A stretch of DNA of 64,000 nt from a phage: the sequence record PZ445440.1; one strand, given 5' to 3'. Each line of letters opens with the position of its first letter. Position 1 is the stretch's first letter. The position numbers and the translations under genes were made by a program. This document shows positions 2,128 to 45,897 of this stretch, one piece after another. The notes under the pieces were generated by a model, which made no database searches, was not told the origin of the DNA, and saw nothing but the letters and a program-made list of their open reading frames with translations.

Positions 2128-2363
2128 ATGTATTCTCTTCGAATGAAGTCCTCTACATATTTTAACATGTCATCTCTATCAGCAAAATATTCATCTAGTT
2201 CTGCATACATAACAACACCTGGTGCGTACTCACAGGTAACATACATTGTTCCAAAGAAACGAGGAGTTGATTCCTCGTAATTCTCAGTCCATTCAACGAT
2301 ACCAATATAACCGTCACCAATACTAAATTCATGACGATGGATTTCATAATCAGTCTTCGTCAT
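2124..2363 (-). CDS. hypothetical protein (46.1-like position)
   Basis: ORF track 2124..2378; start moved to ATG at 2363 with GAGGA upstream; sits between 46 and 47 as in T4. Confidence 0.55.
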   Translation of the reverse strand: MTKTDYEIHRHEFSIGDGYIGIVEWTENYEESTPRFFGTMYVTCEYAPGVVMYAELDEYFADRDDMLKYVEDFIRREYI

Positions 2364-2607
2364 TATACGCATCCTCAATACACGCTTCAGCCATTTTAAG
2401 AATAGAGCCGGGAGTATCGTTGTCCATTATATTAAAGCTAAATTCAATAGCCCAGTCGGTGCAGACATGAACTGCTTTAACTTCATTGCCTTCAACGCGT
2501 AATGGCTCAATCCAATACTTGATAGTGTTCTCGAATCCATCATCATCTTTAACGTCTATTTCAACTTCAAGCCTGAGTCCAGCATTGTTAAATTCATCTA
2601 AAGTCAT
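2350..2607 (-). CDS. hypothetical protein (46.2-like position)
   Basis: 85 aa ORF, ATG start with GAGG upstream; stop abuts gene 47. Confidence 0.6.
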   Translation of the reverse strand: MTLDEFNNAGLRLEVEIDVKDDDGFENTIKYWIEPLRVEGNEVKAVHVCTDWAIEFSFNIMDNDTPGSILKMAEACIEDAYNDED

Positions 2608-3623
2608 TGTGTTGCCTCAATATAAAGTTCGTTGGAATATTTGACCAGCGCTTCTCTGTCTTCGTCTGAGATATCTGGAATCGCGTCAATATATTCTTTA
2701 ATGATATCTTGAAGTGATTTAATCTCGATTTCCTGGTCGTCATCAGATTCAACACTGTTATCAACTTTAGAAACCATACGAAGAGAGTGAACTACTTTTT
2801 CAAGTTCAGATTCAAACTTAGTCAACTCTGAATCAATTTCTGATACTATAACACGTACGGCTAGATTGGTATAATCAGAATAATTGATTTTGCCTTTAAA
2901 CGGATAAGTGATTCGTCGATGCCATGTTGTTTCATTAGGAATAAATTCCATACGTTCAACATCAGTGTCAAATACCCAGAATCCACGAGGATCATTCTCA
3001 TCGCCTGCAGTAAGGGTCCATGGTGTCCCAATATATTTGACGTTAGCAGCTTCAGAGATTGTGTGGAAGTGGCCAGACCAGACTTGTTTATAGGTCTTTA
3101 AGAAATCAGGTTCAAGCCCATGAGACTTCATTCCTTTATAGAAATAAAAACCATTCAGTTCCCAGTGCCCAACACAATACGCTGCAGAAGAAGTCTTGAT
3201 GTGCTCTAAGATTTCACCTGTATTTTCTTCACACATCCATGGAACGATATCAATCAGACATCCGTCAAAATCTACAGTAGTTGGATGCTCGTAAATAGTA
3301 AAGTTTTCAAATTGAGTTAACAATTCAGAAACAGTGTTAGGTGTTATGGTATTCTTAAACGCCATGTCATGATTTCCTATCGTGACATGAACGTGAATGC
3401 CTGCTTTAGAAATCATATCAACGATTTCACGATTGAATTCCATTGTACGATGTGTTATTGCTTTACGGACGTCAAACCAATCACCGTACTGAATCCAAGT
3501 TTTAATCCCGTGTTTCTTAGAGTATTCAATTGCTTGACGAATACCATCACGTTGAATATCTTGAACCCATGGGTCGTCTTGTTTGACTCCGATATGGAAG
3601 TCGCCTAAGTGCAAAATTTTCAT
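2604..3623 (-). CDS. 47: recombination endonuclease subunit gp47 (Mre11/SbcD-like phosphoesterase)
   Basis: 339 aa; MKILHLGDFH... and GNHD phosphoesterase motifs matching recalled T4 gp47. Confidence 0.95.
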   Translation of the reverse strand: MKILHLGDFHIGVKQDDPWVQDIQRDGIRQAIEYSKKHGIKTWIQYGDWFDVRKAITHRTMEFNREIVDMISKAGIHVHVTIGNHDMAFKNTITPNTVSELLTQFENFTIYEHPTTVDFDGCLIDIVPWMCEENTGEILEHIKTSSAAYCVGHWELNGFYFYKGMKSHGLEPDFLKTYKQVWSGHFHTISEAANVKYIGTPWTLTAGDENDPRGFWVFDTDVERMEFIPNETTWHRRITYPFKGKINYSDYTNLAVRVIVSEIDSELTKFESELEKVVHSLRMVSKVDNSVESDDDQEIEIKSLQDIIKEYIDAIPDISDEDREALVKYSNELYIEATQ

Positions 3624-3663
3624 ATTATTTCCTCATTAGTTAATTCATTCTATCATCCGTTTA

Positions 3664-4411: not shown

Positions 4412-4627
4412 TTATCTCATTAAATTAAAATAAAAACGTCCATCCTCTTCAATACAGAACTCGTACTCAACTGGAGTTCCATTTATCGAAAATGACACGT
4501 CATGTGGGTTCAAAGGGTCGATGTCAAAATTAATTTTAAATTCTCGACCCAACAGTTTTACCAAATAAGGGATTGCTTCGTCAAAAGGTTCTTCTAAGTA
4601 GTTAGAGATGTCAATTGTCATCCTCAT
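4412..4627 (-). CDS. hypothetical protein
   Basis: ORF track 4412..4705 shortened to internal ATG so that it only slightly overlaps the 3-prime end of gene 55. Confidence 0.45.
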
Positions 4628-5168
4628 ATAAAAAATCCAAACTAGGCGAATCGCTAACAACTTCCTTCTTTTCAGCCCCAGGAGCTTTATAAGCGGATTC
4701 TTCATAATGCGTCATTTTATCGTAGATGTCTTGAATAAACGTTTCATCTACCAACGCTACCATATCATCGTCATGACTGTCGTAGACATTATGAACGAAG
4801 TAACTATATTTCTTTGCAACTTCCTTACGTTCTTTTTTGATACGTTGGACAAAAGCATTAAAACAAGCTCGAGTTATGTATGCATGTGGGTTATTGTACT
4901 TAGTTTCGTCGAAATTATGAAGTCCCTTAATAGAGGCTTCAATCCCATCTGCAATCATCTCCTGCTTCCAAGACTGGGTATATCCTGAAAAGTTGAAACG
5001 TTTGGACAGGCCTTCGGCGATAAGCATAATTGCTAAACCGATGGTATCATTCTGACGAATAATTTTGTTTGGGTCTTTATTATTTAAGAGCTCCTTTTTC
5101 CACTCGATTATAGCGGCGAGAAGCTCTTTATTATTCACATAGTTATTTTTAGGTTTTTGTTCAGTCAT
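4611..5168 (-). CDS. 55: late-transcription sigma factor gp55
   Basis: 185 aa; long stretches identical to recalled T4 gp55 ([46 protein letters not shown]). Confidence 0.95.
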
Positions 5169-41864: not shown

Positions 41865-42599
41865 TTACCTTAAGATTTTTTCAATTTTAGAATAAAGCTC
41901 TTCTAAAGAGCCGTCGTTTGTAATAACTAAATCGCCTTCTTCAATAGGCAACCCAGCTTCTGTAATATGTTTATCAGTGGATTCCGTACCAGAGCGAACC
42001 ACATGAATAACTGTAGCACCCATCGCTCTAGCGGTTTCCATTTCATGGACTTGGCGTGTATCGGTCACAACGTAGTAATCGAAATCACTTCCAATATAAT
42101 CCATATAGTTTAATGCAAAAAGCTTAACCCAATACATACGGTCAAATAAATTAACGACAACATCCGTACCGAGGGCTTGCATAAGACGGCGGATTGACCA
42201 CGTGTCGTTGTTATTATTTATAGCTTCACGCAGGGCTTCGTACGGTTTAATATCTAGATATGAGTATCCACCTTCTAACGATGATAATACTTTAACATTA
42301 TTAATTGGTAAATATTGACTTTGTAAATAAATTAGCGCTTCTTCCATTAATTCAATAACATCCAACTTATTGAGATTTAATGGTGTTTCACGGTCGTATC
42401 CAATGCCTTCAAAGTATTCGTATTTCAACTCAGTGAATACATCCGGGTTTTCGGCATGTTTACGCTCCCAAGCTATTGCTAGAGCGTCTTTAATTGGATA
42501 TGCTAATTGGTATTTTACGGATTTAAAGTTTGAATTAATGTAATCAGCAGTAGTGTCTTTACCACTACGTTTGATGCCGCTTAAAAAGATTAGCTCCAT
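41865..42599 (-). CDS. 1: deoxynucleoside monophosphate kinase gp1
   Basis: 244 aa; IFLSGxKRSGKDTTAD P-loop and long matches to recalled T4 gp1. Confidence 0.95.
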   Translation of the reverse strand: MELIFLSGIKRSGKDTTADYINSNFKSVKYQLAYPIKDALAIAWERKHAENPDVFTELKYEYFEGIGYDRETPLNLNKLDVIELMEEALIYLQSQYLPINNVKVLSSLEGGYSYLDIKPYEALREAINNNNDTWSIRRLMQALGTDVVVNLFDRMYWVKLFALNYMDYIGSDFDYYVVTDTRQVHEMETARAMGATVIHVVRSGTESTDKHITEAGLPIEEGDLVITNDGSLEELYSKIEKILR

Positions 42600-42653: not shown

Positions 42654-43238
42654 TTAGCGCAAGGAAGGGTGTCTAGAAATGGATTTAGATTCGGCAGCCT
42701 GACGTGGTTGTTGAGATACAATGACTTCGCCATCCTTTTCTATCGTCATATACGCGTAGTGAATAGTTGCTACGCAAGTAACGGCAGGGTCAGAGTCTTC
42801 AGTGTAACTAAATTCAATTTCGCTCAAATCGGAAATCCATGGTTTATAGAAATTTGCTGTCAAAACTACTTCTGTCTTATTGTTGTTTAAAATGTGCAAA
42901 GTAACAAACTCAGGACCATCGGCATGGGCTGTATTATGACCAGTTATATAGTTATTAGTGCTGAGCATCCATTTATACATGTTCATCCAGGACGTCATGT
43001 CTTCATCAACTATAAATCGTACAACAAAAGGGTCATATTCAAATGTGGTGCCTGCACGCATTGCACGCCCTAGCCCCATTGTGCCAGTCACAGTTTCAAC
43101 AACAGGAATTCTCACACCTGGCAATGGAGCCGTTTGGGCATTGAGCACAAAACCTGAAGTTCGTGTACTATCCGGGATATCCACAACAAAGTTTGTTATA
43201 TTTGTTTGGTTAAAAATCTGTCTCGTTGGACGAGTCAT
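42654..43238 (-). CDS. 3: tail completion / sheath terminator protein gp3
   Basis: ORF track 42654..43244 begins with GTG; ATG 43238 with GAGGTG upstream; position between 1 and 2. Confidence 0.8.
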   Translation of the reverse strand: MTRPTRQIFNQTNITNFVVDIPDSTRTSGFVLNAQTAPLPGVRIPVVETVTGTMGLGRAMRAGTTFEYDPFVVRFIVDEDMTSWMNMYKWMLSTNNYITGHNTAHADGPEFVTLHILNNNKTEVVLTANFYKPWISDLSEIEFSYTEDSDPAVTCVATIHYAYMTIEKDGEVIVSQQPRQAAESKSISRHPSLR

Positions 43239-43340
43239 AAGCACCTCAAAAACGCTTTAATAAAAATGCAGTATAATGGTTTTAGGTCTCTTCCATTAAT
43301 CTGGTTCAACAGAATATCAGAAGAACGGAAGAGAATAGAA

Positions 43341-44162
43341 TTAAGATTTCCAAACAGTATTCGCAGAGAAACGTTTTCCTTTTGACATAAACTGCTGAGT
43401 AGGTAACATGATTATGTTAGCCCAGTCTTTAGGAGCTATTTCTGTTATTGTTCCTCTAATGTGGCCTGGCAGGTATGCTTTAATCATTTTGTCAGCACCT
43501 TGAAATCCTTTCACCTTGCTCCAGTCTATCTTCAACTTTGTGTTATTAGTAATAGTAGTTGTGCTAGCATATTGCTTCAGCAATTCTTCAAGAAACTGTT
43601 GACGTGCTTTAGGCGGGATATAGTGCAAGTTTAACCCATACATCAAATTATGTTTACCTAATCCTAAATAAATAATCAAAGGATATCGGTCCCAATATGG
43701 CAGAGTATCTTTATGTTTAGCATCATACATGTAAGTATAAATTTTGCCTGGCGTAGGCTTGACTACTTTATGACCTTTTACACTTTTCTTAATTGTTTCA
43801 ACAAACCACTTAGATGATTTGTTGTTTACTGCTGCGCCTTCATTTCTAATCTTTTCTCGTATTGAACTGCGAAACGAGTTTATCATCAGAAGTTGACGTT
43901 CTTGCTTATTGAGTTTATTTTTAGGTTTAGATTCAAGCGTTTCAATTTTCTGTGCAGTCTTAATAGATGATGCATATCTAGACATTGCAGATGTAAACGA
44001 CGAGTATTTTATTCCTTTTGATTCTGCAAATGCTTTTGCAGTGATTCCTTTCTCTTTAGCTTTCTTGTATTCTAATCCTATCTCAATCCATTTTCTTTCA
44101 TTCATAGACTGAGCAATCTTAGGGGCTTGTACGCCTTCAGATATAATTTGGAATATGCTCAT
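43341..44162 (-). CDS. 2: DNA end protector protein gp2
   Basis: 273 aa; size and position match T4 gp2. Confidence 0.85.
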
Positions 44163-44809
44163 TCAACTTTCCTCATTTTACAATTATCACCATGCCAACG
44201 TTTATAAGGCGCAGGTTTACATTCTATACCGCAGTATTGGCATATCTTATTAGGAGTATTTAAGTATCCTAATCTCATGTTTTCCTTTTCTTCAGGAGTT
44301 CTATTTCGTCCCGTAAGAGTATTTTTTATTTTGTCTCTAATCTCTTTAGGCATTATCCTGCCTCGGCCTGCTTTACCTATTTTAGCTTTATGCTCTTCGG
44401 ATAATTTCTTACCCTTCTTAGCTAAACTCATTTTCTTTTTAGATTCTTCGGAAATAGGACCTAATTTTCTACCTCTGGATGAATCGCCTATTCTTTTTCG
44501 CACATCGATAGAACGGCCTCGTCCTCCCTTTCCTCCTAGGTCTATATTATATGTATCTTCTCTATCCACAAAAGATTGATCAACTAATTCTGCTTCCTTT
44601 TGGAAAGCCATTTCTTCATTTAGTAATTCGTCACCGGTATCATACACATATAATACTTCTTTTACAAAATTATCTAATCCGTATTTAGCATGGGCTTTTA
44701 AGATAATTTTACCTGTTCCTTTATAAGAATCATCCGGGTTATTAGTTTTATGAACACCTATATAAATTTTATTATTTACGATGTTAGTTATTTTATATAC
44801 AGTATACAT
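44159..44809 (-). CDS. freestanding GIY-YIG homing endonuclease (Seg-like, NUMOD3 repeats, C-terminal zinc finger)
   Basis: N-terminal [22 protein letters not shown] motif; repeated GRKLxxEx/[17 protein letters not shown]3-like motifs; CQYCG...HGDNC. Confidence 0.85.
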
Positions 44810-44810
44810 A

Positions 44811-45260
44811 TCATCCCTTATATCCTAAACGACGTAAACCGTCTTCTGTGAGAATTCTGAATTTAATATTTCTTTTAGCCGCTAATGCTGACGCAGCTTT
44901 CCATTTGTCGCAGTTCACAGACCACACGTAGATCTCGTTCATATAACGTTTCTTTGCTGCAGTCGTAAGATTTGCAGGCTTAATAGGTGGTTGAGTTTCT
45001 TTCTTTGGTTTTATTTCTACAAAGAACTCTTGACCTGATGCATCTTTCATCCATATATCCATAAAGTATCTACGTTTTTTACCTTCTGCGTTACAGAAAT
45101 ATGGAATTACTGCTGTTTCGCTGCCCCATGCAATAATTTCTGGATTTTTATCTAACCATTCGAAAAAGAATTTTTCCCAGTTTGAACGATACGTTATTTT
45201 GGTATGGTCTCCACGGTATTTTTTTAAATTTTTTGGGACCCATTTACCAGAGTAGGCCAT
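44811..45260 (-). CDS. 4: head completion protein gp4
   Basis: ORF track 44811..45404; ATG 45260 (MAYSGKWVPKNLKKYRGD). Confidence 0.85.
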   Translation of the reverse strand: MAYSGKWVPKNLKKYRGDHTKITYRSNWEKFFFEWLDKNPEIIAWGSETAVIPYFCNAEGKKRRYFMDIWMKDASGQEFFVEIKPKKETQPPIKPANLTTAAKKRYMNEIYVWSVNCDKWKAASALAAKRNIKFRILTEDGLRRLGYKG

Positions 45261-45271
45261 GTTGTCCTCCT

Positions 45272-45279
45272 TATAAATA
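45272..45279 (+). promoter_or_regulatory. T4-type late promoter TATAAATA (for gene 53)
   Basis: Exact octamer about 43 nt upstream of gene 53 start. Confidence 0.6.
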
Positions 45280-45286
45280 GTATTAT

Positions 45287-45294
45287 TATTTATA
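45287..45294 (-). promoter_or_regulatory. T4-type late promoter TATAAATA on minus strand (for gene 4)
   Basis: Exact octamer (plus-strand TATTTATA) about 27 nt upstream of gene 4 start. Confidence 0.55.
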
Positions 45295-45321
45295 CCAATT
45301 TCATATTGGAAGGAGACTATC

Positions 45322-45897
45322 TTGTTATTTACATTCTTCGACCCAATAGGATATAGTGCTAAAACCATTAATAAGAATGCACCTACTATTCCTATGACAG
45401 ACATATTTCGTAACTATAAAGAGTACTTTAAGCGTGTTGCTGCCAATTATAGATTACGTTCTTATTATATTAAAGGCTCTCCGCGTCCTGAAGAACTAGC
45501 AAACATAATTTATGGCAACCCTCAATTATACTGGGTCCTTTTGATGTGCAACGATAACTACGACCCGTATTATGGTTGGATTACATCTCAGGAAGCAGCG
45601 TATCAAGCTTCTATTCAGAAATATGCAAATGCAGGTGGAGACCAAATTCTTTATCATATTAACGAAAAACGCGAGAAATTTTATAACTTAGTTTCATATC
45701 CAGATGAGCCATTAGTATGGTATGATAAAGGCGATAAAGCTCGTAAGTATCCACAATATAAAGGACCTTTAGCTGCAGTAGATACTTATGAAGCGGCAGT
45801 ATTAGATAATGAAAAACTTCGTAAAATAAAAATTGTTGCAAAAGAAGATATAAACTCGTTTATCACAGATTTGATTCGTGAGATGGAGATTGCATAA
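45322..45897 (+). CDS. 53: baseplate wedge protein gp53 (TTG start)
   Basis: 191 aa near-identical to recalled T4 gp53; first codon TTG with GGAGA upstream, no in-frame ATG nearby. Confidence 0.9.
   Translation: MLFTFFDPIGYSAKTINKNAPTIPMTDIFRNYKEYFKRVAANYRLRSYYIKGSPRPEELANIIYGNPQLYWVLLMCNDNYDPYYGWITSQEAAYQASIQKYANAGGDQILYHINEKREKFYNLVSYPDEPLVWYDKGDKARKYPQYKGPLAAVDTYEAAVLDNEKLRKIKIVAKEDINSFITDLIREMEIA

Follow-up and report, generated by a model that had tools for sequence, protein, structure and literature searches.

Between late genes 4 and 2, the phage DNA analyzed here (sequence record PZ445440.1; the whole 64,000-nucleotide stretch is called the window) contains an additional open reading frame (ORF) whose product looks like a homing endonuclease. 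The question raised by this locus is whether the ORF is a working homing endonuclease gene (HEG) or the relic of one and, if it works, where its target lies and how the adjacent late genes are still expressed.

The ORF was confirmed to begin with ATG, to encode 216 amino acids and to span positions 44159 to 44809 of the window on the minus strand. The region from 43341 to 45404 is 100% identical to Escherichia phage ChristianSchoenbein (MZ501056.1), an RB69-like member of the genus Mosigvirus within the Tevenvirinae, and MZ501056.1 already labels the ORF 'putative homing endonuclease'. Upstream is gene 4, the probable target gene, which encodes the head completion protein (44811 to 45260, minus strand) and is 98% identical to its RB69 counterpart outside its 3' tail. 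Downstream is gene 2, which encodes the DNA end protector (43341 to 44162, minus strand), is 98% identical to the annotated RB69 gene and is translationally coupled to the HEG. A preliminary description had placed the ORF between genes 2 and 4 with its stop codon overlapping the start of gene 2; the identity of both flanks to RB69 supports the placement, and the overlap (ATGA) is exact at 44159 to 44162, where the gene 2 ATG (44162 to 44160) shares two bases with the HEG TGA (44161 to 44159). On the other side, the gene 4 stop codon (TGA, 44813 to 44811) is followed by a single spacer base and then by the HEG start codon at 44809. The gene order 1-3-2-[HEG]-4, with divergent 53-5, matches that of T4.

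Two other ORFs in this region were set aside. A 197-amino-acid version of gene 4 results from an in-frame upstream ATG, and its extension (45261 to 45404, minus strand) runs across the late promoters described below. It was dismissed because annotated relatives begin with MAYSGKW (at 45260), and the extension is missing in Mosigvirus ECO111 5-P. A 100-amino-acid antisense ORF (44277 to 44579, plus strand) was taken to be a chance occurrence. Separately, the gene 4 product (44811 to 45260, minus strand) matches the Tn7 TnsA-like endonuclease N-terminal domain of Pfam (PF08722, E 4.9e-20), which places a nuclease-type fold within a head completion protein.

The first 95 amino acids of the HEG product (44525 to 44809, minus strand) form a GIY-YIG catalytic domain. 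The protein matches the PHROG 314 family, annotated as 'homing endonuclease', with an E value of 1.7e-50. It also matches the group I intron endonuclease model TIGR01453 of NCBIfam (E 1.3e-11, which is under the curated cutoff of that model) and, weakly, the Pfam family SegE_GIY-YIG. [quoted passage not shown] An AlphaFold2 model based on the same alignment (pLDDT 91.6) presents a beta-beta-alpha-beta-alpha nuclease domain with the alpha/beta catalytic fold of I-TevI, and the best PDB matches to the model found by using Foldseek are the I-TevI structures 1MK0 and 1LN0 (probability 0.97 to 1.00; target-normalized TM score 0.53). The GIY-YIG N-terminus noted in the preliminary description is thus borne out by the PHROG 314 match, the I-TevI profile match and the structural search.

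Ten residues are invariant among the 44 homologues, and all are kept: Y5, Y16, G18, Y29, G31, E72, Y87, N88, G92 and G93. The GIY-YIG motifs themselves take the form V-Y5-K...I-Y16-I-G18, in which Y5 and Y16 align to Y6 and Y17 of I-TevI, and E72 and N88 align with the metal-binding Glu and the Asn of I-TevI (E75 and N90). No basic residue aligns with R27 of I-TevI, either in the profile or in an alignment with SegA-G and I-TevI. In place of the R27-bearing helix, there is a shorter loop, D27-S-Y29-K-G31-T-G33. This loop corresponds to a Seg signature, D-x-Y-x-G-[ST]-G, that follows the YIG motif and reads DDSYKGTG here, DDGYMGSG in SegA-E and NDKYPGSG in SegF.

When all seven T4 Seg proteins are aligned, SegA-F share this signature and likewise lack the Arg. 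SegA, B, C, E, F and G are tabulated as active endonucleases (PMC2988022, Table 1), and SegB has been biochemically characterized (PMC2330249). Because SegA-F also lack the Arg and several of them are proven nucleases, its absence is a property of the Seg class rather than a sign of decay. We found no statement on the missing Arg of Seg proteins in PMC1564403 or PMC2330249, and the point rests on the alignment. The preliminary description had treated absence of the catalytic Arg and Glu as the mark of a degenerate remnant. The Glu (E72) is present and the Arg is absent, but this yardstick is only half valid, since SegA-F are also without the Arg. Annotators should be aware that Seg-class enzymes normally lack the I-TevI-type Arg and should not take this lack to indicate degeneration.

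The catalytic domain is followed by about five NUMOD3-like helical repeats (amino acids 99 to 184; 44258 to 44515, minus strand), the presumed DNA-binding region. Two stretches match Pfam NUMOD3 (PF07460) with 20.7 bits, above the cutoff of 20.4, and the AlphaFold2 model contains five short helices (101-111, 121-131, 138-148, 155-165 and 172-184) with a period of 17 to 18 amino acids. The helices bear the repeat (S/P)-E-E-x-K-x-K-I/M-S/G...G-K/R, which is typical of NUMOD3, and the profile weakly matches the DNA-binding domain of I-TevI (1I3J). The above-cutoff match and the five helices uphold the earlier mention of NUMOD3-like repeats.

The protein ends in a zinc-finger-like CCHC module comprising C190, C193, H206 and C210 (44180 to 44242, minus strand), which is modeled with a pLDDT of about 96. 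The spacing C190-x2-C193...H206-x3-C210 is kept in those aligned homologues that possess the tail, with the motif C-P-x-C ... K-R-W-H-G-D-N-C-K, and the module presumably binds metal. The preliminary description had regarded a C-terminal cysteine cluster as part of the architecture of T4 Seg endonucleases. The cluster exists, but in the alignment this tail has no counterpart in any of the seven T4 Seg proteins; the cluster is a trait of the present HEG sub-lineage, outside the T4 Seg architecture.

The HEG is rare among close relatives. It is present in six records, which represent four phages, of roughly 153 Mosigvirus-level records, and about 147 records lack it. The four phages are ChristianSchoenbein (Switzerland), HX01 (China), GADS24 (Saudi Arabia) and p000v (source unstated); their HEG proteins are 100% identical and are labeled as homing endonucleases. 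In RB69, the empty site reads TAA-TT-ATG, with 2 nucleotides separating genes 4 and 2, and the other HEG-less records are alike. The comparison of the junction with HEG-less relatives, which had been proposed as a check, thus reveals an empty site in RB69 and about 147 other records. The HEG is located between genes, in no intron or intein, and is missing from collinear relatives, which is the pattern by which Seg-type genes are recognized.

At least six other genera of Straboviridae have related genes at this junction (41-73% identity in the cases that follow), all of them oriented alike and either overlapping the gene 2 start or directly adjoining it. Examples are in P479 (Gaprivervirus, 66% identity), vB_EluP_RZH (Karamvirus, 60%), KARL-1 (Lazarusvirus, of the subfamily Twarogvirinae, 51%), STP4-a (Gelderlandvirus, 45%) and RB16 (Pseudotevenvirus, 41%). 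The closest relatives (73% and 64% identity) are encoded by two metagenome contigs, and these genes are also at the gene 4/gene 2 junction. On this distribution, the HEG lineage appears to be dedicated to the junction.

ECO111 5-P has another GIY-YIG HEG at the gene 4/gene 2 junction (record positions 2316-3060), which shares 39% identity with the ChristianSchoenbein HEG and 63% with that of Salmonella phage STP4-a. The last 33 nucleotides of the ECO111 5-P and ChristianSchoenbein genes, which include the Shine-Dalgarno sequence and ATGA, are nevertheless identical, and the first 100 or so are about 85% identical. Ends this similar in two genes with such dissimilar products (39% identity) suggest recombination between competing HEGs.

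Similar ORFs also occur one gene away. In P479, a 'putative mobile endonuclease' ORF (2969-3628) overlaps the gene 2 stop codon at the gene 2/gene 3 junction, and a metagenome contig has a similar ORF (4493-5155) at the same junction. These cases suggest that the gene 2/gene 3 junction is a second HEG hotspot.

The expression signals around the HEG are compatible with its position. A T4-type late promoter, TATAAATA, is located upstream of gene 4 (45287 to 45294, minus strand) and is the presumed source of a gene 4-HEG-gene 2 transcript. A second TATAAATA (45272 to 45279, plus strand) serves gene 53 and is arranged back to back with the gene 4 promoter, 7 nucleotides apart, in the intergenic region that separates genes 4 and 53. 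Between the gene 4 promoter and gene 2 we found no further TATAAATA, and neither gene 4 nor the HEG was found to contain a terminator-like site. Because no promoter follows and no terminator intervenes, the HEG is probably part of a late gene 4-HEG-gene 2 message; both the function of the gene 4 late promoter and the timing of HEG expression are deduced from these signals. A scan of positions 43000 to 45700 for sigma-70 promoters and terminators returned counts at the level of chance, and we claim no dedicated HEG promoter.

A Shine-Dalgarno sequence, AAGGGA, at the end of gene 4 (44814 to 44819, minus strand) is now positioned for the HEG, and the equivalent AAGGGG precedes gene 2 in HEG-less RB69. 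Gene 2 has a Shine-Dalgarno sequence of its own, GAGGAAA, within the last HEG codons (M-R-K; 44168 to 44174, minus strand). An internal Shine-Dalgarno sequence together with a stop/start overlap is also found in ECO111 5-P, P479, STP4-a, RZH, KARL-1 and RB16. The idea that an RNA structure hides the HEG ribosome-binding site, as is the case for I-TevI, was dropped, because the predicted fold of 44770 to 44870 (minus strand) has a z score of only -1.09.

Outside the HEG, most of the fixed differences from HEG-less genomes lie in the 3' end of gene 4. An 8-kb region surrounding the site was aligned for four HEG-containing and five HEG-less Mosigviruses. Of 28 fixed differences between the two groups, 26 fall between 44812 and 44892 (minus strand), within the last 82 nucleotides of gene 4. 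The remaining two are at 44809, an alignment-edge column in the HEG start codon, and at 42510, which is far off. In this recoded tail, the HEG-containing and HEG-less alleles diverge by 33%, in comparison with 3.9% among HEG-less alleles, and 4 of 27 amino acids are altered (V>L, E>A, V>I and K>R). At the other border, the match to HEG-less phages picks up again precisely at the gene 2 ATG, with zero fixed differences on that side.

The HEG and the tail are nearly uniform among the four phages that carry them. Of the 648 nucleotides of the HEG, 1 to 4 differ, always synonymously, and the 82 nucleotides of the tail are the same in all four phages. The backbone beside this cassette differs by 1.3-4.6% among the same phages, which is about as much as between HEG-containing and HEG-less phages, so divergence within the cassette (0-0.6%) is 5 to 20 times below that of its flanks. 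On the gene 4 side, backbone divergence starts 3 nucleotides past the tail border (44895). Because the HEG and the 82-nucleotide tail are uniform within diverged backbones, they would constitute the moving unit, and this uniformity fits recent homing. As a separate observation, p000v has a private patch of 15 single-nucleotide differences in 165 nucleotides of gene 2 (window-equivalent 43938-44103) that is in no other phage examined; from its pattern, it is probably a separate recombination patch.

The tail is also confined to HEG-containing phages. In a blastn search of positions 44811 to 44960 (150 nucleotides) against 50,697 phage records, six records matched with at least 95% identity, all of which contain the HEG, and 147 matched with 80-90%. 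None of the 50,697 phage records has the tail of the HEG-containing phages in the absence of the HEG. A donor for the tail was not found in the same search or among the neighbors of metagenomic HEGs. The tail is about equally far (approximately 68-74% identity) from every sampled gene 4, matching RB69 at 55 of 81 positions, T4 at 54 of 81 and the closest metagenomic neighbor at 60 of 81; the gene 4 tails beside the metagenomic HEGs with 73% and 64% identity are just 74% and 64% identical to that of ChristianSchoenbein. The T4 and RB69 tails differ by 26 nucleotide changes that alter 8 of 27 residues, whereas the same number of changes in the ChristianSchoenbein tail alters 4 of 27. The recoded tail may be a flank of the donor, a patch that confers immunity to cleavage of the target, or both. 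Correspondingly, positions 44812 to 44892 are predicted to mark the position of the target in HEG-less alleles, to be co-transferred donor flank, or to be both.

Taken together, these data make it likely that the ORF represents an undamaged and probably active freestanding HEG of the T4 Seg type. We propose that it spreads by the following mechanism, for which we infer nuclease activity, target position, homing and expression timing, as well as local marker exclusion. The HEG would be translated late, by means of the ribosome-binding site that HEG-less phages use for gene 2, and would provide gene 2 with the new GAGGAAA site and the ATGA overlap. This takeover and replacement of ribosome-binding sites is proposed to be how late-gene expression is kept, in line with the preliminary proposal that the insertion is accommodated without disrupting it. 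When a HEG-less Mosigvirus co-infects the same cell, the NUMOD3 helices and the CCHC module would bind a long degenerate site, and the GIY-YIG domain would make a double-strand break in the HEG-less allele. The most likely place for the break would be within or beside the final 80 or so base pairs of gene 4, or else where genes 4 and 2 meet; we have moderate confidence in a target at or near either of these places. T4-type recombinational repair would then copy the HEG and the linked 82-nucleotide gene 4 tail from the HEG-containing genome. The outcome would be intronless homing, with exclusion of local markers of the recipient. The HEG is not sweeping through the genus, because only about 3% of Mosigvirus records carry it. 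In T4, SegD cleaves DNA but is not known to home.

A single insertion that was vertically inherited by the four phages, with flanks diverged by ordinary recombination, might also yield a uniform cassette. T4-like phages recombine frequently, the sample comprises four phages, and the patchy blocks of flanking differences show general mosaicism. However, divergence begins within 3 nucleotides of the cassette border at 44895, and it is 5- to 20-fold lower inside; both are what a cassette that moves as one piece should show. We consider vertical inheritance unlikely, and it is in any case compatible with an active endonuclease. Less probable again is a defunct or domesticated gene, kept because it supplies the ribosome-binding site and coupling for gene 2, or co-opted for competition or regulation. 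With the gene 2 Shine-Dalgarno sequence and the ATGA coupling inside the HEG, clean loss of the HEG would be difficult; the HEG is moreover rare in the genus and lacks the Arg at the I-TevI R27 position. Against this, that absence is common to active T4 Seg enzymes (PMC2988022), the ORF is full length with all ten family-invariant residues intact, and each of the four polymorphisms that distinguish the HEG copies is synonymous. The near-identity of the cassette up to its borders, in backbones that are 2-4% apart, also suggests recent spread. The reading as a degenerate remnant was rejected because no family-invariant residue has been lost and because the polymorphisms are without exception synonymous.

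The alternative that carries the most weight concerns the target, and we regard it as a real possibility, although not the favored one. An active nuclease might cut at a distance, for instance elsewhere in gene 4, in gene 53 or in gene 2, in which case the 82-nucleotide tract would be donor DNA that was dragged in at the time the HEG first reached the Mosigvirus lineage. Freestanding T4 endonucleases cut hundreds to thousands of base pairs from their own genes (PMC2988022), and SegF and SegG are precedents for cutting at a distance. Because cleavage by these enzymes is usually far away, the adjacent recoded tract need not contain the cleavage site (PMC2988022). The tail also has the look of a foreign flank: it matches RB69 at 55 of 81 positions, exactly as the T4 tail does, and its L and I residues also occur in the gene 4 tail that adjoins the most similar metagenomic HEG. 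However, so distant a flank would be expected to alter more residues, as T4 does (8 of 27, versus 4 of 27 here). The lineage occupies exactly the gene 4/gene 2 junction in at least seven genera, which argues for a nearby target. In addition, a HEG-containing genome needs immunity to its own nuclease, and the fixed differences specific to HEG-containing phages within 8 kb are concentrated in the tail. We therefore prefer the reading in which the target is the 3' end of gene 4 or the junction, or lies close to one of them.

The closest characterized relatives are the Seg endonucleases of T4, especially SegB, SegD and SegA, which are similarly freestanding, intergenic and sporadic among close relatives. 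The HEG shares with them the D-x-Y-x-G-[ST]-G loop in place of the I-TevI R27 helix, the conserved Glu and Asn and the subsequent NUMOD3-type repeats, and SegA-D are 31-38% identical to it. In contrast to the T4 genes, the ChristianSchoenbein HEG resides at the gene 4/gene 2 junction, a site that is empty in T4 itself, and has the CCHC module that all seven T4 Seg proteins are missing.

The resemblance to I-TevI extends to the catalytic fold, to equivalents of Y6, Y17, E75 and N90, and to a modular plan in which the GIY-YIG domain is followed by extended elements that bind the minor groove, among them a NUMOD3 helix and a zinc finger. Unlike I-TevI, the HEG is not encoded in an intron, and a shorter loop replaces the R27/H31 helix. 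The zinc finger of I-TevI is of the CCCC type and is situated in the linker, whereas the zinc-type module of the HEG is C-terminal and of the CCHC type. No C-terminal helix-turn-helix such as that of I-TevI was detected in the HEG protein.

More similar still are the annotated 'Seg-like homing endonucleases' of RB16, GAP161, Acj61, KARL-1, STP4-a, P479, vB_YenM_P8 and vB_EluP_RZH (41-66% identity). They share with the HEG its site, orientation, overlap with or abutment to gene 2, and domain plan, including the CCHC tail, but belong to phages of other genera and host ranges. The Mosigvirus HEG is a separate allele and is accompanied by a recoded gene 4 tail of its own. No experimental characterization of these annotated junction enzymes was apparent in the literature searched, and a biochemical or genetic test of the ChristianSchoenbein HEG protein was likewise not found in the literature. 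The HEG is thus an ordinary, already annotated but uncharacterized Seg-like GIY-YIG homing endonuclease.

A wider interpretation, which we offer tentatively and consider less likely to hold than not in its entirety, is that a Seg-like lineage with a CCHC tail has come to specialize in the gene 4/gene 2 junction and has tracked it through no fewer than seven genera and two subfamilies of Straboviridae, each time taking over the ribosome-binding site of gene 2 and providing another in its place. The Mosigvirus tail would then be a target-immunity patch that arose in an arms race of the endonuclease with its site, and two competing HEG sublineages would be recombining at the locus.

Although such HEGs are a routine feature of T4-like genomes, this one is valuable as a clean natural test case. 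What is new here is a base-exact empty site, a junction-specific lineage that spans genera, and an 82-nucleotide tract that is a candidate for the target or for immunity. HEG-containing ChristianSchoenbein and HEG-less AlbertHofmann are both Mosigviruses of the BASEL collection and share the same K-12 host. Mapping of the cleavage site, intronless homing, and marker exclusion near the essential late genes 4 and 2 are thus directly testable.
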